A program made the translations under genes and the position numbers. The notes beneath the pieces are model-generated. The model worked only from the letters and a program-made list of their open reading frames with translations, made no database searches and had not been told where the DNA came from. Below, piece after piece: positions 2,562 through 10,920 of a stretch of DNA of 32,000 nt (within the stretch, counting starts at the first letter, position 1; every line of letters begins with the position of its first letter). The stretch is taken from contig CP104013.1 of assembly GCA_025839675.1 (NCBI GenBank), positions 660,001 through 692,000 of the forward strand, written 5' to 3'. Origin of the DNA: Candidatus Lokiarchaeum ossiferum. Lineage in GTDB: Archaea > Asgardarchaeota > Lokiarchaeia > Sigyniarchaeales > Promethearchaeaceae.

Positions 2562-2656
2562 CGCAACTAAAGTTAACATTTAAATACTCATATTACCTTA
2601 TTTAGTTCAGAGGCCAATAACCCGCAACTAAAATTAACATCTATCACATTTTAGTC
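2562..2656. promoter_or_regulatory. Candidate operator array: heptamer AACTAAA / TTTAGTY in alternating orientation, including two 18-bp direct repeats
   Basis: CGCAACTAAAGTTAACAT (2562-2579) and CGCAACTAAAATTAACAT (2623-2640) match at 17 of 18 positions. AACTAAA lies at 2565-2571 and 2626-2632. Its complement TTTAGTT is at 2601-2607, and TTTAGTC is at 2650-2656. The array sits 80-170 bp upstream of the ATG at 2735. Confidence 0.35.
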
Positions 2657-2734
2657 ATTGATATTCAAGTGATGATTCTATGGTTAATTTCAGTTAGGAC
2701 AATTGCTCTAAAAAAAAAAAGTGAAAAAAAAAAA

Positions 2735-3580
2735 ATGGAACACTCAAACTCTGAAGAAGAAGATCTTCAAGGAATTGATAAAGCTTACGTTAATCGTGCG
2801 ATGATTGGAAGTTTAATTGCTACTGTGTTAGTAAGTATTGGAATCTATTTGTTAGGATGGTTTATAGTCTGGGTAAGCTCAGATGAACCAAATCCAGTGG
2901 ATCAATCTAAAATGTGGCCGATCATATATCTCTCAATGGCAATATTTTTTGTAGTTGTGAATTGTTTGGTATATCTTGTTTCAAATTTATATGTGAACCA
3001 CTTTTCCTATTCGATATCAGATAAGTTCATTAAAATTCGTTATGGAGTATTCACACGAACAAAAACAACCATCCCATTTTCTCGAATTCAAAATGTAGCA
3101 GTTTTTCAAAATATTCGGGATCGCATCTTAAATATCTATACTGTCAAAATAGAAACAGCAGGAGCAAGTATTGCGGGATCTGGAGCACAAGGGGGTACAG
3201 TCCATCCTGAAGGATATATTCCAGCAGTTCGAAATCCTGAACACCTAGAATCACTTATTAACAAATTGGTTCACCAATATACTCAAGATATTTCGGGAAA
3301 TGTAAAAGAAAATGTGTTTACAGATAATAATGTGGCATTTGATGAATTTATTGCATATTTCTTATCTAAAATGCGAGAAAAAAATCAAATTCGAACAAAT
3401 GTTGAACAGCTAAGAACGCAAAGTGGAATGACCCAAGAAAAATTAGCAGAAATGGCAGGAGTGGCGGAAACAACTATCAAATATTTGGAAGATGGAGAAT
3501 ATGTGCCTTCACTGACTTTAGCTCTACGAATTGCACAAATATTCAAAGTATCAATAGAACAGATATTTCAACTCAACTAA
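2735..3580 (+). CDS. Membrane-tethered regulator: two TM helices + bPH_2 (YdbS/YdbT-type bacterial PH) domain fused to a C-terminal XRE-family HTH
   Basis: The track ORF starts at GTG 2669; I prefer ATG 2735 (MEHSNSEEED...). Two TM helices (AMIGSLIATVLVSIGIYLLGWFIVWV; WPIIYLSMAIFFVVVNCLVYLV) are followed by FSYSISDKFIKIRYGVFTRTKTTIPFSRIQNVAVFQNIRDRILNIYTVKIETAG, typical of PF03703-type bPH domains. The C-terminus LRTQSGMTQEKLAEMAGVAETTIKYLEDGEYVPSLTLALRIAQIFKVSIEQIF is a classic HTH_3/XRE. Confidence 0.8.
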   Translation: MEHSNSEEEDLQGIDKAYVNRAMIGSLIATVLVSIGIYLLGWFIVWVSSDEPNPVDQSKMWPIIYLSMAIFFVVVNCLVYLVSNLYVNHFSYSISDKFIKIRYGVFTRTKTTIPFSRIQNVAVFQNIRDRILNIYTVKIETAGASIAGSGAQGGTVHPEGYIPAVRNPEHLESLINKLVHQYTQDISGNVKENVFTDNNVAFDEFIAYFLSKMREKNQIRTNVEQLRTQSGMTQEKLAEMAGVAETTIKYLEDGEYVPSLTLALRIAQIFKVSIEQIFQLN

Positions 3581-3689
3581 TTTCTTTTTTCCTCCAATGT
3601 AATTCTGACTTAACACATTTGATAAAATAGTTCACAAGAAAGAAAATTGGATAACTAGCGATACCGAGAAGAATAGCGGAAGGTCAAGA

Positions 3690-3893
3690 ATGAAAAATCA
3701 AGTAAAAGAATTACGCATGGAAAAGAACATCACACAACAGGAATTAGCAACAGCAGTCAATGTTTCAAGACAGACCATATCATATATAGAAAACGGCGAA
3801 AAAAGTCCCAATATCATTGTAGCTTTGAAAATTGCTGAATATTTCAGAATGCAAGTTGATGAAATATTTGAATTAGAATCATCTGATAGATAG
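3690..3893 (+). CDS. Small XRE-family HTH transcriptional regulator (67 aa)
   Basis: VKELRMEKNITQQELATAVNVSRQTISYIENGEKSPNIIVALKIAEYFRMQVDEIFEL is a canonical HTH_3. GGAAGGT lies about 8 nt upstream of the ATG. It is roughly 45% identical by eye to the HTH of the preceding fusion protein. Ends in TAG. Confidence 0.9.
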   Translation: MKNQVKELRMEKNITQQELATAVNVSRQTISYIENGEKSPNIIVALKIAEYFRMQVDEIFELESSDR

Positions 3894-3964
3894 GAAAGAA
3901 TCTACAAATTGACCTTATGGACCCATAAGTACCCATCATTAAACATAGGAATTTATTTATTTTT

Positions 3965-3980
3965 TTATTAGTGCTAATAA
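3965..3980. promoter_or_regulatory. Perfect 7-bp inverted repeat TTATTAG-TG-CTAATAA upstream of the hydrolase gene (candidate operator)
   Basis: Read directly from the sequence. It lies about 73-88 bp upstream of ATG 4053 and directly downstream of the two XRE genes. Confidence 0.3.
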
Positions 3981-4052
3981 ATTTATTGAAAAGGTATAAG
4001 CCGAACCAATTATAAGGGTTTGGTTTATCGCCTACTCACTCAGGTTTTAACA

Positions 4053-6128
4053 ATGAAACAGAAATATCAATATCTTACAATAGTATTCATCACAATGTTC
4101 TTATTCGGAATAACGTTCAATCACAGTTCTGAGGATAAAACAATATCTTCTGAACATTCAGATTATATCCCGAATTCTGCCGCGGCTCACCCACCCCGAG
4201 ATATCAATAACATTTCCCAAATTGAAGAATTTTTAGATGAATTCATCCCAAACCAATTGGAAGAATCAAATATTGCGGGTGTCACCATTTCAATGGTTCA
4301 TAATGATAGTATTTCCTTAGTAAAAGGTTATGGGTATAGCGATATCAGCAAGGGTAAAAATGTTCAAGCAAATTCAACAATATTTAGAGTTGGATCGATC
4401 TCTAAATTATTCATTTGGACAGCAATTATGCAACTTTATGAGGAAGGAAAAGTGGATCTAAATACGGATATAAATAATTATCTCACTGCTTTTCAAATTC
4501 CGGATACTTTTGATGAACCCATAACATTAACACACTTAATGACGCATACAGCGGGATTTGAAGAAACACTCGCAAGAATTATTGATCCCGCGGATGTTTT
4601 TCCAGTTAGAGAACAATTCCTTCGTGAAAATTTACCTCCTCGATATTTTGAACCGGGAACAGTTCCATCATACTCAAATTTGGGATCTGAGCTAGCAGCA
4701 TTGATTGTTGAAGAAGTAGCCCAAACACCTTTTGAGGAATATGTTAAAAAAAATATTTTTCAAAAATTGAATATGTCGCGTAGCACCTTTCTTCAGCCAC
4801 TTCCAGTTAATGTATCTTCCTCAATGTCAAATGGATACTATTTTGAAAATGAACAGTTACAAGAAGGATTCTTTGAATATTTGAGCGTAGCGGCGGCTGG
4901 AGGGATGAGTTCGACCGCTGAAGATATGGCTCACTTTCTAATTGCTCAATTAAATAATGGAACCTATGGATCAAGTCAAATTTTAGCCCCAGAAACACTA
5001 TCCTTAATGCATACACCTCAATTTCAACCACATCCCGAATTTCCTACAATTCGATATGGTTTCTATGATCTTGATTTATTAGGACAAACATCGTTTGGGC
5101 ATGGTGGAGATACGTATTTTTTCCACAGCCAATTATCAATTTTTCCAGAATATAACTTTGGAATGTTTATTTCATACAATTCTCAGAACTCTACTGGACA
5201 AACTATAGCATTTCAAGCCAATTTTATGAAAGAGTTCATGGAAACTACCACAACATATTCTACAAATTTGACCCCTGTTGATAATTACCAAAAAAGAGTA
5301 ACACGATTTACAGGATACTATGAAACAACTCGAGTGCCTTATTCAACCCCAGATAAACTTTACTACAATTATTATGCTGATAGTGCCTTCAAACTCACAT
5401 CTAATGATGAAGGTCAGTTGGAAGGTTTTGGATTAACATTTTTAGAAGTTGAGGAAAATGTATTTCAAGATACACGAGGACTTGGAGTAAAACTTCTCTT
5501 TGTTGAAGATGCTACTGGAAATATCCGCTATATGTATACAAATGATGCAGTAGTTTCTGCTTCGATGAAATTTCAATGGTTTGAATATTCTTCCTTCCAA
5601 ATGTTCTTAGTAATAATTATTCCAGTTATCTTTGGTCTCAGTATAATATTTTGGATTGGAGAGGGTATTTGGAAACATGTTAAGAAAAAGAAACACCCAG
5701 TTATTGAACCCCAACAAACGACTAGAACCAACGATATATCCATTTCAAATGTATTCAAAGAAAAACCAAAATCAAAATGGGTGATAAATTGGCCCCGTAT
5801 TATTGTGTTAGCTCAGGTGTTATTGAGTGTTGTGTTTGTTGTCTTGGTAAGAATATTTCATGTGCTCCGTCTTTCATATATACTCCCCTATGATGATTTT
5901 TTTGATAGGATTCTGATTATCCCGTATTTCATTTTTCTCTTTATTGCGGCAACGGGGATTAATGCGATTTTGGAATGGTTTGGAAAGAATTTTCAACGAC
6001 CTTCAGATCAACCCTTGAAAGCTTGGGAGAAAGTGCATTTCAGTTTAGTGGCAGCTACCGGTTTATTATGGTTGTGGGTGCTCAGCTATTGGAACCTTTT
6101 AGGATTTAACTCAGGCGGAGTAATGTAA
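4053..6128 (+). CDS. Membrane-anchored serine hydrolase of the beta-lactamase / PBP (class C-like) fold with a C-terminal multi-TM domain
   Basis: The track ORF starts at TTG 4020; ATG 4053 (MKQKYQYLTIVFITMFLFG, signal/anchor) is more likely. S-x-x-K motif in VGSISKLF, Y-x-N motif in SYSNLG, HGG in FGHGGDT. The C-terminal ~180 aa contains about 5 hydrophobic helices. Confidence 0.85.
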   Translation: MKQKYQYLTIVFITMFLFGITFNHSSEDKTISSEHSDYIPNSAAAHPPRDINNISQIEEFLDEFIPNQLEESNIAGVTISMVHNDSISLVKGYGYSDISKGKNVQANSTIFRVGSISKLFIWTAIMQLYEEGKVDLNTDINNYLTAFQIPDTFDEPITLTHLMTHTAGFEETLARIIDPADVFPVREQFLRENLPPRYFEPGTVPSYSNLGSELAALIVEEVAQTPFEEYVKKNIFQKLNMSRSTFLQPLPVNVSSSMSNGYYFENEQLQEGFFEYLSVAAAGGMSSTAEDMAHFLIAQLNNGTYGSSQILAPETLSLMHTPQFQPHPEFPTIRYGFYDLDLLGQTSFGHGGDTYFFHSQLSIFPEYNFGMFISYNSQNSTGQTIAFQANFMKEFMETTTTYSTNLTPVDNYQKRVTRFTGYYETTRVPYSTPDKLYYNYYADSAFKLTSNDEGQLEGFGLTFLEVEENVFQDTRGLGVKLLFVEDATGNIRYMYTNDAVVSASMKFQWFEYSSFQMFLVIIIPVIFGLSIIFWIGEGIWKHVKKKKHPVIEPQQTTRTNDISISNVFKEKPKSKWVINWPRIIVLAQVLLSVVFVVLVRIFHVLRLSYILPYDDFFDRILIIPYFIFLFIAATGINAILEWFGKNFQRPSDQPLKAWEKVHFSLVAATGLLWLWVLSYWNLLGFNSGGVM

Positions 6129-6244
6129 AACTCATCAATTTTAATCACATTTTTTTCTCAATCTCTTTTCTTTTTTATTCCACCTTTTTTGTGATGGAAC
6201 TATCCCCCCCACTCAACTTAGGATTAACGACCAGGTAAAAAAAA

Positions 6245-7042
6245 ATGAATCTTATGAACGATATTATGTTAAAAGCCGAGAATATTTCCAAATCATTTGA
6301 AAATGTTCATGCTGTTAATGATCTCTCTTTTGAAATTAAGAAGGGAGAAATCTACGGATTATTGGGCCCCAATGGGGCTGGAAAAACTACGACAATTAAA
6401 ATGATTTTAGGTCTTTTAGAACCAGATCAAGGTGAGATTTCAGTGTTAGGTCTTCATCCGGAACGTGATGAAATTGAACTGAAAAATCGAATCGGTTATG
6501 TCTCAGAAGAGCCATTGATCTACAAATCCTTAACTCCCAAAGAATTATTTAACTTCATTGCTTCAATACGAAAATTAGATGGTGAGAAGGTAACAAAAAA
6601 GTTGGCAGAATACTTAGAAGGATTAAATGCTGTTGAATATTATGAACGGTTGATTTCAACCTTATCGAGGGGAAACAAACAAAAAATCCAAATTATTGCA
6701 GCAATATTGCATGATCCACAATTACTAATATTAGATGAACCTTTAGCAGGGTTGGACGCCAAATCGGTCAAGGTGGTGAAAGAAATTTTGGAATTGCACA
6801 CTCAACGGGGGGGTTCAGTCCTATTTTCAACCCACATTATGGAGGTTGCTGAAGATCTCTGCGATGTTATTGGAATAGTCAATCAAGGAAAATTAGTTGC
6901 TGTTGGAACTGTTGATGAATTACGCGAACGCGCCAACACACTTGGTGAAGATATGGACTTGGAAGATATATTCTTGAAACTTACTGATCAAGATGAATCA
7001 GTCAATCTGATTATAGAAAAGTTACGAGCATCAATCAATTAA
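6245..7042 (+). CDS. ABC transporter ATP-binding protein
   Basis: Walker A GPNGAGKTT, signature LSRGNKQK, Walker B LLILDEP, H-loop region STHIM. Confidence 0.93.
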   Translation: MNLMNDIMLKAENISKSFENVHAVNDLSFEIKKGEIYGLLGPNGAGKTTTIKMILGLLEPDQGEISVLGLHPERDEIELKNRIGYVSEEPLIYKSLTPKELFNFIASIRKLDGEKVTKKLAEYLEGLNAVEYYERLISTLSRGNKQKIQIIAAILHDPQLLILDEPLAGLDAKSVKVVKEILELHTQRGGSVLFSTHIMEVAEDLCDVIGIVNQGKLVAVGTVDELRERANTLGEDMDLEDIFLKLTDQDESVNLIIEKLRASIN

Positions 7043-7055
7043 GGAGACAAACACA

Positions 7056-8774
7056 ATGAATCGTCAAGAATTAATGACAATATCTAAATATTCCTATAAA
7101 GAAGCGTTCTTACAAGGCCAAATGGAACAAGCAGGAAGCAATTTATATTCGATTATGGAAAAAATGGAAAAAAATACAAAATATCTCCGCAATCAGAATA
7201 TTGCAATGAAAGTAGTAATGACAATCTACGTCTCTCTATTGATTTTTTCTCCGATTTCCGCATTTCTCAATGCGCGCGCATCCTTTGGTTTAGCATCCTA
7301 CCAATGGCGATTATTTTCAAGTGGCTTAGTAATGAACCTATTCTTTTTAATGCAATTTTTTTATATTCTGATGTTTGGCTTGTTTTTTGCATCTGGGATG
7401 TTGTCTGGTGAGGCATTTCGTTTCTTAAGTACACTCCCGATTCCAAAAAAGGATCTCCGAAAAATTAGTTATATGACTTTTCTTCGTGGAATCGACGCAC
7501 CTGCAATTGCACTATGTTTAGTCTTTCCATTTGCTGCGGCAATAATTACTCAAGATATATTTATTACTTTAATATGTTTGATTGTATCGATCTTGAATAC
7601 TATTTTCACTTTCAGTATTTTGATAATTATTGGAACCAAAATGCAAAAAATCCTTGCACCGAGTAATACACGTTCCCGAAAAGCCGATGTGATTCGAATA
7701 TTATGGTTAATTGGATATTTCATTGCAACAATAACATCAGCGGTCGGATTTCAGATCATATACGAAAATATAGAACCATTTTACTATACTGAGGGATTAA
7801 CTCTAATAACCACGACCATTTGGAATCAGATTCTACCTTGGATATCCTTTCCACTTAGCGGAGGATATTTAATCATGGAATTATTTATTGGCCCAACTCA
7901 CTTCTCTTTGCTAACTCTTGTTGCATCGATTGTTGGAGTGATTATTTTTGGAATATTAGATTATATTTTGACTCGTAAAGCCCTCAATATTTTAGATACA
8001 ATCGTGTATGGGAAAGATGGTGCTTTTGAAGAAGAATCTTATATAACCACTGTGGAGGATATTCAAATTACGATTGTATCACCGAAACAAGCTTATATTC
8101 GACGCGATATGAAATTAGTTCCTCGAGATATTCAGGTAATTATCATGAATATAATGCCCATATTATTTCCATTATTTGGGGTGATAATTGGAGCAGGTGT
8201 CGTGCGACCAGGAGATCCAGATGCAATCTTTGCAATTTTGGGTTTATCGCTTTTCTATTCAATCTTTGGTTCCATGATGGCTGCCATTGGGATGATGATG
8301 GTAGAATCCACGGGAACTACAATTATTCAATCTCTTCCAATTGTGGAGAGAGATCAAGCAAAAGCAAAGCTGCAATGGATTTGTGTAGTATTGCTAGCAT
8401 CTTTTGTCATCCCAGCAATTTCTATGATAGTGAGTCCGAATATGCGAGATTTGCTTAAATATATGGTCATTTTATGGCCATTGAGTTTCCTATTTGGCAT
8501 AGCAAATATAGAGTACTCGGCAGTAATCTTTGGAAAACTGAAATACAAGTATGTACTTACTGAAAAACCCAATATTCGCTACAAAACCTTGAAAACCGCA
8601 ACAATTTTTATACTCAATGCGATTTTTGCTATCGGATTAATTCTCGCTTCGATTGTAACAATTATGCATTTTGTCTACTGGCAATTTGCGTTAATATTCA
8701 TTGGAGGAGAAATAATTCTTCTATTTCTCTTGCTTCTTGGCTTCAATAAGCTATTTCCAAAGAAGAATTTTTGA
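7056..8774 (+). CDS. Large polytopic ABC exporter permease-like protein (572 aa, internally duplicated)
   Basis: Starts 13 nt after the ATPase stop, with GGAG 9 nt upstream (translational coupling). It has at least 12 hydrophobic helices. Two halves each carry an S-(x)-LPI-x3-D motif (LSTLPIPKKDLRK near aa 125; QSLPIVERDQAK near aa 428). Confidence 0.75.
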   Translation: MNRQELMTISKYSYKEAFLQGQMEQAGSNLYSIMEKMEKNTKYLRNQNIAMKVVMTIYVSLLIFSPISAFLNARASFGLASYQWRLFSSGLVMNLFFLMQFFYILMFGLFFASGMLSGEAFRFLSTLPIPKKDLRKISYMTFLRGIDAPAIALCLVFPFAAAIITQDIFITLICLIVSILNTIFTFSILIIIGTKMQKILAPSNTRSRKADVIRILWLIGYFIATITSAVGFQIIYENIEPFYYTEGLTLITTTIWNQILPWISFPLSGGYLIMELFIGPTHFSLLTLVASIVGVIIFGILDYILTRKALNILDTIVYGKDGAFEEESYITTVEDIQITIVSPKQAYIRRDMKLVPRDIQVIIMNIMPILFPLFGVIIGAGVVRPGDPDAIFAILGLSLFYSIFGSMMAAIGMMMVESTGTTIIQSLPIVERDQAKAKLQWICVVLLASFVIPAISMIVSPNMRDLLKYMVILWPLSFLFGIANIEYSAVIFGKLKYKYVLTEKPNIRYKTLKTATIFILNAIFAIGLILASIVTIMHFVYWQFALIFIGGEIILLFLLLLGFNKLFPKKNF

Positions 8775-8814: not shown

Positions 8815-8834
8815 AAAAGATGCGTTGATCTTTT
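8815..8834. terminator. Hairpin AAAAGAT-GCGTTG-ATCTTTT between convergent genes, preceded by oligo-T tracts
   Basis: A 7-bp perfect stem with a 6-nt loop, read directly. It sits between the permease stop (8774) and the stop of the minus-strand sensor gene (8833-8835). T-rich runs lie at 8786-8793. Confidence 0.35.
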
Positions 8835-10020
8835 AATCCAATTCATCCAATATCTTTTTTGAGCAATCTGGGCAATAACTATGTGTCAATTTTGCTTGAG
8901 AATGTTGGTCAATAAATTGTTCTAAATTATCCCAAGTTCCATCATCATTTCGAATTTTTTTACACGAAGCACACATGGGAAGAAAGCCAGAAAGAACTTT
9001 CATACGTTTTACGGTATCTTGGACTTTAACTTCCAAATTTTCAGTATAATCCTTCAACTGAAGTGTTATTTGGAAGCGCTCCGCCACTAAGGCCATTAAT
9101 AACAAATTTGTAAAAGCAATAATGAACAAATAAAATTGAGATAGAAGAACAGCCTGATCAATATCATTAGATGAGAAAGGAGCATCTCCATTGAGAATAC
9201 CATAAATCATTGATAAGGACACAAGAACCATATGATTAACAGCAATTTGCGGAGAAAAACGGAATACCGCCCAAATTATTAAAGGAAGAATTAAGTATTC
9301 AAAGTGATTAAAATCAATGGAAATTCCTACTCCAACTAAAATGATTAATTGAAAAACTATGCTTAGGCCTAAAAAGACGATCAATTCACCCACTTTGCGA
9401 TAATTATGCCAATCAATAGAGTTTGGATATGATTTTGTCAGAAATATTGGAGATATTATCAAAATTGCCGCCAGATCAGACAACCACCAACTAAACACTG
9501 ATGAAAAAAAAGCATCGACTGGTAGATAAGAGCCAAAAATTAATGCAGAACTGCCAATAATTCCTGCTGATAAACAAGAAAGTATAGCAACCAAAAGAAA
9601 TTTGATAAGAGATGACGGATGTATCAAAAAATCTTCCCTAATCCATTTCTTTTCAAAAGAAGTAGAAATAATAAATGGTTGAAGAGAATTACCGGAGGCA
9701 ATTAAAGCAACCACAATAATTAGTGAAAAGTTAATATTACCAATCATTGTCTTCATATTAACCAAGGCTTCGATGAACGTTCCAATCCAAATACCTATAA
9801 GATGAAATTTGGATTTCTTAAAAAGAAAAAGAAAAGTAAACCCGGCTGGCAAGTATAGTGGAAAAACAACATCGGTAGTGTCTTGAATTAAGATAAAACT
9901 AATCCTTCCAAGAAAAATGATGAATAAAGTGATAAAAATATTTGCTAAGACAATCTTCCCTGTTTTTGATAATTTCGTTTGATAAGAAATACGAATTTTG
10001 TTTAGCATAACAAGATCCAT
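8833..10020 (-). CDS. MASE1-like integral membrane sensor with short coiled coil and C-terminal Cys4 (CxxC...CPxC) motif
   Basis: About 10 TM helices. LPAGFTFLFLFKKSKFHLIGIWIGTFIEALVN and PLIIWAVFRFSPQIAVNHMVLVSL resemble MASE1 landmarks. The C-terminus is PMCASCKKIRNDDGTWDNLEQFIDQHSQAKLTHSYCPDCSKKIL. No kinase, GGDEF or other enzymatic output domain is present. Confidence 0.7.
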   Translation of the reverse strand: MDLVMLNKIRISYQTKLSKTGKIVLANIFITLFIIFLGRISFILIQDTTDVVFPLYLPAGFTFLFLFKKSKFHLIGIWIGTFIEALVNMKTMIGNINFSLIIVVALIASGNSLQPFIISTSFEKKWIREDFLIHPSSLIKFLLVAILSCLSAGIIGSSALIFGSYLPVDAFFSSVFSWWLSDLAAILIISPIFLTKSYPNSIDWHNYRKVGELIVFLGLSIVFQLIILVGVGISIDFNHFEYLILPLIIWAVFRFSPQIAVNHMVLVSLSMIYGILNGDAPFSSNDIDQAVLLSQFYLFIIAFTNLLLMALVAERFQITLQLKDYTENLEVKVQDTVKRMKVLSGFLPMCASCKKIRNDDGTWDNLEQFIDQHSQAKLTHSYCPDCSKKILDELD

Positions 10021-10275
10021 TGAATGAGGAAGCCTAAGTATATTTTTACTTGATAAAGATTTTTCAAATAGATCTTTTTACCGATGCTGGTATATGAAAT
10101 ACAGTACCATGTGAGTAATACACAATTGGGATGATCAAGAAAGTATGGAGAAATTATAAATCCCTATTTTCAGAACAACATGTCACCCATAATTTTTCAT
10201 GAAACAACGTATTCTCTTAATGACATCCACATCTTAATAAAAGCAAACATCGATTTTAGAGCGTTAAAAGCTAAA

Positions 10276-10920
10276 TTAATCCCAATTAGTAAATTTAGTA
10301 AATATTCCAAAGAATAGGTAGACCCAAAACTCAAACCAAAAGGTATTATTGGGAGGAGCAATCCCTTTAATCCTGCTTTCAAAAGCAGAAATCGTATTTC
10401 CAAAGAGATTCCCAAAGGTGATCATTTGGCAACAATTTAATATATCTTGGGCTTTATCTACACCATAAAATTTGATTATTGCATGTAAAGATTTGGAAGA
10501 TGGATGTTCATGGGATTCAGCATAATGCTGAGCAAAAGCTAAAGCAGGAGCTTCATCTATGGAAACTTCTTCAAAATCAAGACACGAAATTTGCCGTATA
10601 GATTCAGGATCAAGCCCCGATTCCAAAGCAACCTTAGAATGGAAATAATTACAGTAAACACACCCATTTACAGCTGTAACAGCCAGCATGATTTTTTCTT
10701 TAAATTCATCAGAAAGCCGGTTACCCTTCATTGTATCAAAGATGAGTTTTCTATGAGCAATAAAAGATTTCAAATAGTCCCGAAATGTCAAAAAACTGAA
10801 ATATCTCTTTGAAAACCTCGCTTTATTAATAATTGAGTTATTTTTCTGCAGAAGTATATTAGGAGGATTCAAACACCCAGGTTTTTGTAAAGGATCTTGA
10901 ATGAATTTTAGTGATTTCAT
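10276..10920 (-). CDS. Carboxymuconolactone decarboxylase / AhpD-like family protein with hydrophobic C-terminal tail
   Basis: KIMLAVTAVNGCVYCNYFHSKVALESGLD carries the CxxC..H core typical of the AhpD/CMD family. I prefer the ATG at 10920 (MKSLKFIQ...) over the track start at 10968. Confidence 0.75.
   Translation of the reverse strand: MKSLKFIQDPLQKPGCLNPPNILLQKNNSIINKARFSKRYFSFLTFRDYLKSFIAHRKLIFDTMKGNRLSDEFKEKIMLAVTAVNGCVYCNYFHSKVALESGLDPESIRQISCLDFEEVSIDEAPALAFAQHYAESHEHPSSKSLHAIIKFYGVDKAQDILNCCQMITFGNLFGNTISAFESRIKGIAPPNNTFWFEFWVYLFFGIFTKFTNWD

Follow-up and report, generated by a model that had tools for sequence, protein, structure and literature searches.

A bPH_2-XRE Fusion and a Small XRE Protein as a Predicted Membrane-to-DNA Signaling Pair with Exchangeable Neighboring Genes in Asgard Archaea

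Genes and Predicted Proteins of the Locus

The window analyzed in this study was a 32,000-nucleotide stretch of the genome of Candidatus Lokiarchaeum ossiferum (contig CP104013.1, positions 660,001–692,000). The original prediction, made from the sequence alone, described a row of five co-directional genes, assigned domains to their products and considered an archaeal host. All of this was confirmed. Five open reading frames were found on the plus strand (2669/2735..3580, 3690..3893, 4020/4053..6128, 6245..7042, and 7056..8774; locus tags NEF87_000566 to NEF87_000570), and, taking 2735 and 4053 as the relevant start positions, they were separated by 109, 159, 116, and 13 nt, as originally described. 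The domains of all five proteins scored above the curated Pfam cut-offs. The window was also crowded with other membrane and transport genes unrelated to the cluster (MscS, CitMHS, CorA, and MASE1), and a degraded AbiEii-like gene pair was located at 1819–2238, just upstream of the cluster.

The product of the first gene (2735..3580, plus strand) is a predicted membrane-tethered transcription factor of 281 amino acid residues, as judged from Pfam matches, homolog alignments, an AF2 model, Foldseek, and hydropathy. The homologs share the start ATG at 2735, and both the longer open reading frame and the annotated 302-residue model were rejected on these grounds. Alignments of 15 and 71 homologs defined the domain layout. 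A transmembrane hairpin (residues ~17–48 and 57–89, from hydropathy and the AF2 model) was followed by a bPH_2 domain on the cytoplasmic side (residues 91–184), a disordered linker, a conserved helix AFDEFIAYFLSKMRE (residues 198–214), and an XRE helix-turn-helix (HTH) at the C-terminus (residues 223–277). The Pfam scores were 61.1 bits for bPH_2 (cut-off 22) and 46.2 bits for HTH_3 (cut-off 23), and the AF2 model had a pLDDT of 78. Its HTH matched the structure of CylR2 with a Foldseek TM score of 0.92 at 36% identity. The second gene (3690..3893, plus strand) encodes a predicted soluble, CylR2-like XRE regulator of 67 amino acid residues, which matched HTH_3 with 65.8 bits, contained the canonical recognition helix VSRQTISYIE, and was similar in sequence to the PDB entries of DR_2454 (9e-13) and CylR2 (2.4e-10). 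In fusions with such a partner, the recognition helices have diverged, and that of the partner XRE is always SRQ[TMA]. The fusions without a partner XRE (L014–L016, L018, and L019) retained a canonical V[ST]RQT helix.

The third gene (4053..6128, plus strand) encodes a predicted membrane-anchored, extracytoplasmic S12 serine hydrolase with a beta-lactamase fold (691 amino acid residues; Pfam Beta-lactamase PF00144, 176.9 bits; AF2 pLDDT 84). It consisted of an N-terminal anchor, a catalytic domain (residues 54–395), a beta-rich domain (412–506), and four C-terminal transmembrane helices (513–679, from hydropathy and the AF2 model). The SxxK, YxN, and HGG motifs that had been read from the sequence were indeed present (S115–K118, YSN 207–209, and HGG 350–352) and were invariant across 46 homologs. 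Foldseek matched the hydrolase to IS11 esterase, Pab87, the DL-peptidase Lip3, and SurE, and a sequence comparison with the PDB also gave hits, although the sequence identities with solved structures were only about 17–23%. Its score against the curated class C beta-lactamase model was 87.7 bits, far under the cut-off of 415. The family is very large and mixed, including esterases, D-peptidases, and cyclases. Among the closest folds, Lip3 is a lipopeptide-cleaving DL-peptidase and SurE is a D-specific enzyme (PMC12903863).

The last two genes encode an ABC transporter. The ATPase (6245..7042, plus strand; 265 amino acid residues; Pfam ABC_tran, 110.7 bits) is DrrA-like and of the ABC-2 exporter type. 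Its best NCBIfam match was drrA (TIGR01188) with 204.5 bits, under the cut-off of 312, and it resembled the DrrA, lantibiotic-protection, and PSM-export classes. The permease (7056..8774, plus strand; 572 amino acid residues) starts 13 nt after the ATPase stop codon and possesses about 12 hydrophobic segments by hydropathy. Its match to Pfam 12TM_1 (PF09847) was marginal (35.3 bits, cut-off 33.2). The internal duplication proposed for this permease was only weakly supported: an hhalign comparison of its N- and C-terminal halves gave a probability of 2%, with the motif SLPI..[KR]D occurring once per half in its favor. All permease homologs found were from Asgard archaea and were always adjoined by an ABC ATPase. 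Moreover, 12TM_1 paralogs were fused to or located beside CPBP/Rce1-like proteases.

Predicted Promoter and Operators, and a Second Conserved Block

The repeat claimed upstream of the first gene was real: CGCAACTAAARTTAACAT occurred twice, with 0.03 occurrences expected and none in 100 shuffles. The two copies form part of two predicted operators, both 16-bp pseudo-palindromes on the plus strand and both identified from repeat enrichment and from relatives. Operator O1 (2562..2577, CGCAACTAAAGTTAAC), whose reverse complement is GTTAAC-TTTA-GTTGCG, directly adjoins the upstream (BRE) side of a predicted archaeal TATA box (2579..2587, plus strand, TTTAAATAC) of a promoter termed P1. The position of this TATA box was predicted with the aid of relatives. 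In L009, L010, L015, L016, L090, and L095, the operators are bordered by the same element, TTTAAATA(C/T), and a TATA box of the TTTAAATA type borders them in every close relative. The inferred transcription start site of P1 would lie at about 2610–2615, and operator O2 (2623..2638, CGCAACTAAAATTAAC), 61 nt after O1, is located over or just downstream of it. Paired palindromes homologous to O1 and O2 precede the fusion gene in relatives, and the O1-TATA-O2 arrangement was also found in L095, L013, L008, L012, and L089. In addition, a third, weaker operator-like copy with one mismatch to the 13-mer core occurs in inverted orientation at 2683..2698 (minus strand; GTTAATTTCAGTTAGG on the plus strand), inside the over-long annotated open reading frame and in the inferred 5′ leader. 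This copy is also kept in L095.

Across 950 kb of fetched loci, the consensus GT[ACT]AA-N6-TT[AGT]AC had 55 matches, 41 of which were within 260 nt upstream of a fusion start, a region of about 1.7% of the sequence. The usual number of operators upstream of the fusion gene was two, and the motif was not found upstream of the XRE, hydrolase, or ABC genes of the fetched loci. The operators of the window are a diverged form of this consensus, and 13 of their 16 bases equal those of the L013 site in a by-eye comparison. Operator class varied together with the recognition helices. GTCAA-N6-TTGAC was paired with SRQTIN in the small XRE protein and SRTTV in the fusion, GCAAC-N5-GTTGC with SRQMIS and A[ED][ST]T, and the hybrid GTTAAC-N4-GTTGCG with SRQ[TA]IS and AETTI, respectively. 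Given that the HTHs of both proteins co-vary with the operator, either protein could be the binder as judged in silico.

The palindromes claimed before the hydrolase gene were likewise found. A TATGG-N2/3-CCATA palindrome (CTTATGGACCCATAAG) lies at 3914–3929 and a 12-bp hairpin at 3996–4028. The former is within a second conserved block, the putative cis element P2 (3900..3975, plus strand), which could be aligned between the XRE stop codon and the next gene in six loci: the window (W), L010, L090, L007, L009, and L011. P2 contains a CTACAA motif, further CCAT/ATGG half-sites, and an A/T-rich segment resembling a TATA box or T-run, and it is kept whether the hydrolase or the ABC ATPase gene comes next. 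No consistent RNA fold was found for P2. Since the operators are found at the fusion promoter only and the different P2 block stands before the cargo, transcription of the region is probably divided into two or more units. In the window, the fusion, XRE, and hydrolase genes each have a T-run after the stop codon, and these T-runs could serve as archaeal transcription terminators within the cluster. In distant clades, the spacers between XRE and ABC genes were 50–90 nt long, A-rich, and free of T-runs.

Conservation of the Pair and Exchange of Its Neighbors

An XRE gene was directly downstream of the full-length fusion gene in 53 of 58 Asgard loci, and in these searches the full-length fusion/XRE pair was essentially restricted to Asgard archaea. 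A lack of co-occurrence in relatives would have refuted the original prediction, but relatives did share the neighborhood: the five-gene order was found in five genomes or contigs, namely L. ossiferum, L095, L093, L090, and Promethearchaeum syntrophicum MK-D1, with hydrolase identities of 43–83%. The claim of a self-contained five-gene unit, however, failed. Against the conservation of the pair in 53 of 58 loci, an ABC ATPase and permease followed it in 19 of 50 loci and the membrane-anchored S12 hydrolase was present in 6 loci only. The loci are not independent samples, given that four of these six (W, L089, L093, and L095) are the window or finds of searches that started from window proteins. 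The ABC genes were in the same orientation as the pair and came from several Asgard lineages. Their permeases belonged to two families without detectable homology to each other (0.4% probability in hhalign), as would be expected if transporters had been recruited more than once.

The close relatives varied in the same way. For instance, L007, L009, and L011 contain the fusion, XRE, ABC, and permease genes and lack the hydrolase, L089 contains the pair and the hydrolase and lacks the transporter, and L008, L012, and L013 have the pair with neither. The metagenome-assembled genome (MAG) of L013 carries a hydrolase on a separate contig (L091). Apart from the pair and with other partners, the hydrolase was found in L091 and L092, and the ABC/12TM_1 module in L084, L086, and L087. 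Judging from these neighborhoods, the hydrolase and exporter genes are interchangeable cargo behind a conserved pair and not a fixed five-gene machine. In 31 of 50 loci, neither a transporter nor a hydrolase was downstream of the pair, so the primary target of the pair may lie elsewhere.

Related Systems and Interpretation

The closest analogs of the pair are CylR1/CylR2, BcrR, and YdbS/YdbT. CylR1/CylR2 of Enterococcus faecalis consists of an XRE repressor of ~66 amino acid residues and a small membrane protein, works without a phosphorelay, and controls the cytolysin operon, which includes an ABC exporter (PMC3709268). Similar to it, the Asgard pair combines a small XRE protein with a membrane partner and has inverted-repeat operators at the promoter. 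Resemblance to CylR2 extends to the sequence of the 67-residue protein and the structure of the fusion HTH. CylR1, however, has three transmembrane segments and neither bPH domain nor HTH, whereas the Asgard partner has a two-transmembrane/bPH_2 layout with its own HTH. Different from the cytolysin system, moreover, the L. ossiferum locus has no lantibiotic genes, it belongs to an archaeon and has a promoter of the TATA/BRE type, and the pair is co-directional with its cargo, whereas CylR1/CylR2 is divergent from it.

BcrR, also of E. faecalis, is a membrane-bound one-component regulator of the XRE family that adjoins the ABC exporter under its control (PMC3968067). Transmembrane transcription regulators are widespread, archaea included; Asgard archaea and bPH fusions are unmentioned in the survey of these regulators (PMC10269533). 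Similar to BcrR, the fusion is a membrane DNA-binding protein of the XRE family without a sizeable external domain and can be encoded next to an ABC exporter. In BcrR, the HTH is reportedly at the N-terminus, with four transmembrane helices at the C-terminus. The order of the fusion is the reverse, with the hairpin first, bPH_2 between, and the HTH last, and the fusion has a soluble paralog as partner, which BcrR lacks.

YdbS/YdbT of Bacillus subtilis belong to the sigma-W regulon and are linked to antimicrobial-peptide resistance (PMC3498285), and export of a leaderless bacteriocin requires the bPH proteins DdE/DdF of the enterocin DD14 cluster, beside which is encoded the ABC transporter DdHIJ that accounts for part of the export (PMC8657885). 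The link between YdbS/YdbT-type bPH proteins and the handling of antimicrobial peptides, raised in the original prediction, stands in the literature. The fusion shares with YdbS a membrane hairpin and a cytoplasmic bPH_2 domain (from the Pfam match and AF2 model). The bacterial proteins are paired and have no DNA-binding domain, whereas the Asgard protein has a single bPH_2 fused to an HTH, plus an XRE partner; no YdbT-like multi-bPH protein was found in the Asgard locus. The hydrolase, in turn, is similar to Pab87/CubicO, IS11 esterase, SurE, and Lip3/Lip7 in its SxxK/YxN/HxG motifs and in having a beta-rich domain after the beta-lactamase fold (PMC12903863), and to ClbP in combining an S12 domain with C-terminal transmembrane helices. 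Different from these, it has an N-terminal anchor and four C-terminal transmembrane helices, and an NRPS or prodrug context is absent.

We consider, with somewhat better than even confidence, that the locus is best explained by an autoregulated membrane-to-DNA signaling pair that controls exchangeable envelope cargo. A single dedicated operon, co-transcribed and evolved to work as a unit, would agree with the common order and orientation of the five genes in the five genomes or contigs and with the tight 13-nt ABC-permease gap; the losses of hydrolase, transporter, or both within the same clade, the hydrolase on another contig of the L013 MAG, the separate lives of both modules, and the splitting of the cluster by the promoter-like P2 block and T-runs make such an operon improbable. 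The pair might instead be a stand-alone regulator, of a dispersed membrane-homeostasis regulon or only of itself, beside which the cargo is incidental synteny. The 31 of 50 loci without downstream cargo, the confinement of operators to the pair's own promoter, and the many unrelated membrane and transport genes of the window (MscS, CitMHS, CorA, and MASE1) fit this reading. We regard it as rather unlikely, given that two unrelated ABC permease families lie directly downstream in 19 of 50 loci of several Asgard lineages, that spacers in distant clades are short and terminator-free, and that P2 accompanies the pair whichever cargo gene comes next.

Autoregulated small XRE proteins with palindromic operators are also typical of antitoxins and C-proteins. 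The pair could thus belong to a toxin-antitoxin, abortive-infection, or mobile-element immunity module, with the XRE protein as antitoxin or controller and the bPH protein as effector. Weak NCBIfam/PADLOC matches to HipB/Y4mF, RstR, C-protein, and CapH HTH models and the degraded AbiEii-like pair just upstream (1819–2238) would be in line with it. These matches, however, span the generic HTH only and are under the curated cut-offs, the membrane protein itself has an HTH, and defence-system models match neither the bPH part of the fusion, the hydrolase, nor the permease. Moreover, the occurrence in several Asgard lineages and the recurring flanking genes in related MAGs look vertically inherited, and no mobile-element genes were recognizable in the flanking sequences retrieved for the window and for related loci under a non-exhaustive annotation. 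We therefore regard an immunity module as very unlikely.

If the pair signals from membrane to DNA, both genes would be expressed from P1, with the two 16-bp operators flanking or following its TATA box. An XRE dimer would sit on the operators, which would place it on both sides of the TATA box and across the transcription start site, and its occupancy would block TBP, TFB, or RNA polymerase, making the pair its own repressor. Through its hairpin and bPH module, the tethered protein would sense either membrane state or a compound that acts on the membrane. The signal could then change operator occupancy in two ways: the tethered protein may bind DNA from the membrane, or it may titrate its soluble paralog through a shared C-terminal dimerization surface. 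Given that the operator is found at the pair's own promoter only, cargo would be controlled through read-through or P2. The cargo itself would provide hydrolysis outside the cell and export. For the combination in L. ossiferum, the proposed sequence of sensing, hydrolysis, and export is thus a reasonable functional guess, and the predicted proteins suggest that the cargo most likely serves inducible protection of the envelope against membrane-active or D-amino-acid-containing compounds from bacterial neighbors.

The fusion regulator and its partner

All five co-directional ORFs of the original prediction were present on the forward strand of the window. They encode a fusion of two transmembrane (TM) segments with bPH_2 and XRE domains (2735..3580), a small XRE protein (3690..3893), a hydrolase (4053..6128), an ABC ATPase (6245..7042) and a permease (7056..8774). 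The gaps between them were 109, 159, 116 and 13 nt, with the fusion and hydrolase genes starting at ATG 2735 and ATG 4053, respectively. The fusion protein was 100% identical to NEF87_000566 of a 6.03-Mb contig; NEF87_000570 and its neighbour were the matches for the permease and the hydrolase. The gene order of the window was also present in Logan assemblies of the enrichment culture. All domains previously assigned to the five proteins were borne out by Pfam scores exceeding the curated cut-offs, and NCBIfam contained no curated equivalog for any of them. An Rfam scan of the whole window gave no match.

The YdbS-type bPH_2 domain (PF03703) of the fusion scored 61.1 bits against a cut-off of 22 over residues 111-167. 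In an alignment of 71 homologues, its core TTIPFSRIQN...VKIETAG was invariant or nearly so. Hydropathy placed the TM segments at residues ~21-50 and 59-88, and the AF2 model (pLDDT 78) placed the corresponding helices at 17-48 and 57-89, followed by strands at 91-165 and a capping helix at 168-184. Thus, as in bPH_2 proteins, two TM helices directly preceded a PH-like beta-sandwich with a C-terminal helix, although the structural match to a bacterial PH protein of solved structure, 3dcx, was weak (E 0.033). Given that the loop between the TM segments consists of ~10 acidic residues, the bPH and HTH parts would be cytoplasmic. Xu et al. in 2010 reportedly described bPH domains as assembling into an oligomeric ring. 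The homologue alignment and the AF2 model further revealed a disordered linker after the bPH domain, a strongly conserved helix at 198-214 (AFDEFIAYFLSKMRE) and an HTH at 223-277. The HTH matched HTH_3 (PF01381) with 46.2 bits against a cut-off of 23, possessed the five-helix Cro/C1-type fold of XRE proteins and superposed on CylR2 with a TM-score of 0.92, the same value as Foldseek gave for DR_2454. The fusion is a transmembrane transcription regulator (TTR) by the definition in PMC10269533, as one polypeptide contains both the DNA-binding domain and one or more TM segments.

In a profile search of 1.84 billion representatives, the full 2-TM/bPH/HTH architecture was confined to only ~20 clusters (50% identity), and all named clusters were from Asgard archaea. 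TTRs are known in bacteria and archaea, and the TTR survey mentioned neither Asgard archaea nor bPH fusions (PMC10269533). Moreover, neither a bPH-XRE fusion nor the Asgard gene pair was found described in open-access papers and preprints. In four related loci from Lokiarchaeial MAGs (L059, L062, L063 and L065), ~199-aa versions of the fusion ended after the bPH domain (match position 10001-10582 or equivalent), with neither an HTH nor a partner XRE. Those of L062, L063 and L065 occupied the gene neighbourhood that holds the full pair in relatives. The short versions could have arisen by loss of a domain, or be artefacts of assembly or of a frameshift.

The 67-aa XRE protein matched HTH_3 with 65.8 bits against the Pfam cut-off of 23. 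It also matched CylR2, a repressor of ~66 aa, over residues 3-62 (E 2.4e-10) as well as a Deinococcus PbsX-family regulator. The length of the partner XRE ranged from 65 to 69 aa in the L. ossiferum/Promethearchaeum clade. In distant Asgard clades (L020-L067, e.g., L025:10905-11324), the partner was 116-140 aa long, with a degenerate second repeat, HTH_26-like, behind the XRE HTH.

Cargo proteins and conservation of the locus

The hydrolase scored 176.9 bits for PF00144 against a cut-off of 27, which places it in the beta-lactamase/S12 peptidase fold. Its SxxK (S115/K118), Y207-S-N209 and H350-G-G352 motifs were invariant among homologues. The AF2 model (pLDDT 84, pTM 0.83) comprised an N-terminal anchor, the S12 fold, a beta-rich domain at 412-506 and four C-terminal TM helices. 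This architecture is common, given that thousands of homologues of 620-720 aa with equal coverage exist in archaea and bacteria. The protein is currently annotated as 'putative D-alanyl-D-alanine carboxypeptidase'. It scored, however, 87.7 bits for the class C beta-lactamase equivalog NF033085 of NCBIfam, far below the cut-off of 415, so that the names beta-lactamase and DD-carboxypeptidase are unsupported on present evidence. The host is not known to make peptidoglycan. The closest folds were those of IS11 esterase, Pab87, the lipopeptide-cleaving DL-peptidase Lip3 and SurE (PMC12903863).

The ABC ATPase exceeded the Pfam cut-off for ABC_tran. Its best NCBIfam model was the DrrA-type TIGR01188 (204.5 bits, below the cut-off of 312.45), and its apparent kinship to the DrrA-type ABC-2 exporter ATPase is only a resemblance. 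The permease, with ~12 hydrophobic segments, matched 12TM_1 (PF09847) marginally, at 35.3 bits against a cut-off of 33.2, and its homologues carried precomputed PF09847 assignments. All homologues found were from Asgard archaea, and several were fused to CPBP/Rce1-like proteases. The permease had been described as internally duplicated; comparison of its N and C halves by hhalign gave a probability of 2.2%, with two 'SLPI..[KR]D' motifs as the sole aligned stretch.

A scan of one genome per species found relatives of the fusion encoded at 63 Asgard loci and, in addition, bacterial loci that matched its bPH part only; the loci were analyzed by tblastn, ORF clustering and motif extraction. Among these phylogenetically non-independent loci, an XRE gene was directly downstream of the fusion gene in 53 of the 58 in which the fusion is full-length and the sequence extends far enough downstream. 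Both cultured species, L. ossiferum and Promethearchaeum syntrophicum MK-D1, have the pair. An ABC ATPase gene and a large permease gene were immediately behind the pair in 19 of the 50 loci with at least 3.5 kb of downstream sequence. The permease was of the 12TM_1 type in 8 of the 19 and a 537-aa protein with no Pfam match in the other 11. A single ancestral transporter was not supported, as hhalign detected no homology between 12TM_1 and the 537-aa 'c5' permease (probability 0.4%). The hydrolase was found behind the pair in six loci, four of which (the window, L089, L093 and L095) are the window or were reached by searches seeded with its proteins.

The proposed five-gene order recurred in L095, L093, L090 and P. 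syntrophicum MK-D1, with the hydrolase of L093 interrupted only by N runs. It was, however, not constant within the clade of the window: L007, L009 and L011 contained fusion-XRE-ABC-permease, L089 contained fusion-XRE-hydrolase, and L008, L012 and L013 contained the pair alone. The hydrolase and the ABC/12TM_1 module were also each found elsewhere without the pair, for instance in L. ossiferum, where a set of ABC/12TM_1 paralogues is accompanied by a CPBP protease and an ArsR regulator. In L084 (6375-10144) and L087 (7185-10649), ABC/12TM_1 paralogues adjoined or were fused to CPBP/Rce1-like intramembrane proteases, and the L. ossiferum paralogue NEF87_002579 was followed by the ArsR-type regulator. 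ABC/12TM_1 with a CPBP protease constitutes a second 'membrane hydrolase plus ABC/12TM_1' combination.

Upstream of the five genes, ORFs of 81 and 52 aa at 1819-2238 resembled the remnant of an antitoxin-like gene and an AbiEii/DUF6036-type nucleotidyltransferase gene. The window copy of the latter was truncated, and a full 201-aa version with sub-threshold Pfam matches was found at L095:3108-3713. A MASE1-domain membrane sensor (8833-10020, reverse strand; 67.6 bits) is encoded convergently to the permease gene and is conserved at the corresponding position of L095; in this sensor, a short Cys-rich C-terminal tail (CASC...CPDC) replaces the usual kinase or cyclase output domain. A 439-aa protein encoded at 24573-25892 (reverse strand) matched Lip_A_acyltrans, the bacterial lipid A biosynthesis acyltransferase family (E 1e-11), which is unexpected in an archaeon. 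A surface protein is the probable product of 27903-31427 (reverse strand): it is 1174 aa long and combines a bacterial Ig-like domain with a series of right-handed beta-helix/NosD segments. The remaining genes of the window were mostly for membrane and transport proteins, including MscS, CitMHS, CorA and DUF1295.

Predicted promoters, operators and transcription units

The repeat predicted before the first gene was real: CGCAACTAAARTTAACAT occurred at 2562 and 2623, where 0.03 copies are expected by chance. These 16-bp palindromes (O1, 2562..2577; O2, 2623..2638) adjoin a TTTAAATA-type TATA box (2579..2587) in P1, the predicted promoter of the pair. A third, inverted and weaker operator-like copy at 2683 fell inside the extra 5' stretch of the public fusion model, which is 302 aa long and starts ~21 codons upstream of ATG 2735 (window 2672-2734); ATG 2735 is common to nearly all fusion homologues. 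Each close relative had two palindrome copies just upstream of the fusion gene and none elsewhere in the locus. The pattern GT[ACT]AA-N6-TT[AGT]AC matched 55 times in 950 kb of loci, with 41 of the 55 matches within 260 nt upstream of a fusion start. The window operators diverge from this pattern, reading GTTAAC-TTTA-GTTGCG on the reverse strand, and by eye share 13 of 16 bases with the L013 site. Both operators were just downstream of the TATA box in Promethearchaeum, L090, L015 and L016, and one was on each side of it in the window, L095, L013, L008, L012 and L089. From what is established about archaeal promoters, a repressor bound in this arrangement would prevent the pre-initiation complex from assembling. 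Direct control of the cargo by the P1 operator was rejected, as no close locus had it in front of the XRE, hydrolase or ABC gene. A scan for sigma-70 promoters and intrinsic terminators, which is inapplicable to an archaeon, gave matches at or below chance.

Three operator classes co-varied with the recognition helices of both HTHs, so that either protein may be the one that binds. The partner XRE always kept SRQ[TMA]. The fusion kept the canonical V[ST]RQT only where it had no partner and was diverged where a partner exists. This pattern suggests a duplication followed by subfunctionalisation, and is compatible with competition, heterodimerisation or separate targets. Asymmetric half-sites, conserved in the Lokiarchaeum clade (window, L095 and L093), would fit a heterodimer.

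A second conserved block, P2 (~3900..3975), lies between the XRE stop codon and the next gene. It was alignable among the window, L010, L090, L007, L009 and L011, whether the hydrolase or the ABC ATPase gene came next. Its sequence features are CTACAA, palindromes of the form TATGG-N3-CCATA with additional half-sites, a TTTATAAA element and a T-run. As evidence for P2, only this block-wide alignment is used; P2 may combine a terminator with a second promoter that has its own binding sites. TATGG-N2-4-CCATA was rejected as a specific motif, being too common at one mismatch (~1 match per 11 kb), and its apparent copies upstream of L015 and L016 overlapped the start of a divergent gene. An RNA structure for P2 was rejected as well, with z-scores of +0.2, -3.5 and -0.5 in three loci and no consistent fold. 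A 12-bp hairpin at 3996-4028 (-16.6 kcal/mol, z -3.8), with its end 24 nt short of the hydrolase start codon, is unlikely to be conserved, as the strong version of the window is weak in L095 and missing from L093. In distant clades, the spacer between the XRE and ABC genes was short, A-rich and without T-runs, consistent with their co-transcription.

Proposed membrane-to-DNA signalling with exchangeable cargo

Similar to CylR1/CylR2, which controls a lantibiotic operon (PMC3709268), the pair includes a CylR2-like XRE. CylR1, however, is a 3-TM protein without a DNA-binding domain, whereas its counterpart here is a 2-TM/bPH_2/HTH protein, and the window contained no lantibiotic precursor or modification genes. 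In BcrR, the XRE HTH is N-terminal and four TM helices make up the C-terminal part. Different from BcrR, the fusion has the reversed domain order and two TM helices only. In bacteria, bPH proteins are required for export of leaderless bacteriocins, to which a neighbouring ABC transporter contributes (PMC8657885), and they belong to the sigma-W regulon (PMC3498285). By analogy with these bPH proteins, CylR1/CylR2, BcrR (PMC3968067), the CPBP permease partners and the DL-peptidase-like hydrolase folds, the function may be defence against membrane-active compounds.

The composite reading with the best support, and one towards which we lean slightly, is that the pair regulates itself, signals from membrane to DNA and has exchangeable envelope cargo; our confidence in the regulatory core alone is higher. 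A fixed operon of all five genes, whose order does recur, is unlikely, as the T-runs, together with the conserved second promoter-like block, point to two or more transcription units. It is doubtful that the pair is a stand-alone regulator with incidental neighbours. Highly improbable is a toxin-antitoxin or defence module; PADLOC gave generic HTH and ATPase matches only, so that the region is no known defence system.

Beyond the signalling pair with exchangeable cargo, we tentatively suggest, as a possibility well short of an even chance, that the fusion and its partner are a previously unrecognised signalling device, found in full length almost only in Asgard archaea. In such a device, transcription would be controlled without a phosphorelay by a PH-like domain on the cytoplasmic side of the membrane. 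The diverged HTH of the fusion would act as a membrane-bound decoy or co-repressor that titrates the soluble paralogue on and off a shared operator, converting membrane state into gene expression, with envelope-protection genes as lineage-specific cargo.

Very little is known about sensing and regulation in Asgard archaea, for which the pair offers a compact circuit, defined by sequence, of two regulators, a promoter, an operator consensus with lineage variants and candidate targets. The fusion also links the poorly understood bPH_2 domain to a DNA-binding output and could help explain what bacterial YdbS/YdbT-type proteins sense. If the cargo is an antimicrobial-defence set, it would show wall-less syntrophic archaea shielding their membranes from the compounds of their bacterial partners. 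If the titration reading is true, membrane state would be coupled to transcription in Asgard archaea, the prokaryotes most closely related to eukaryotes.
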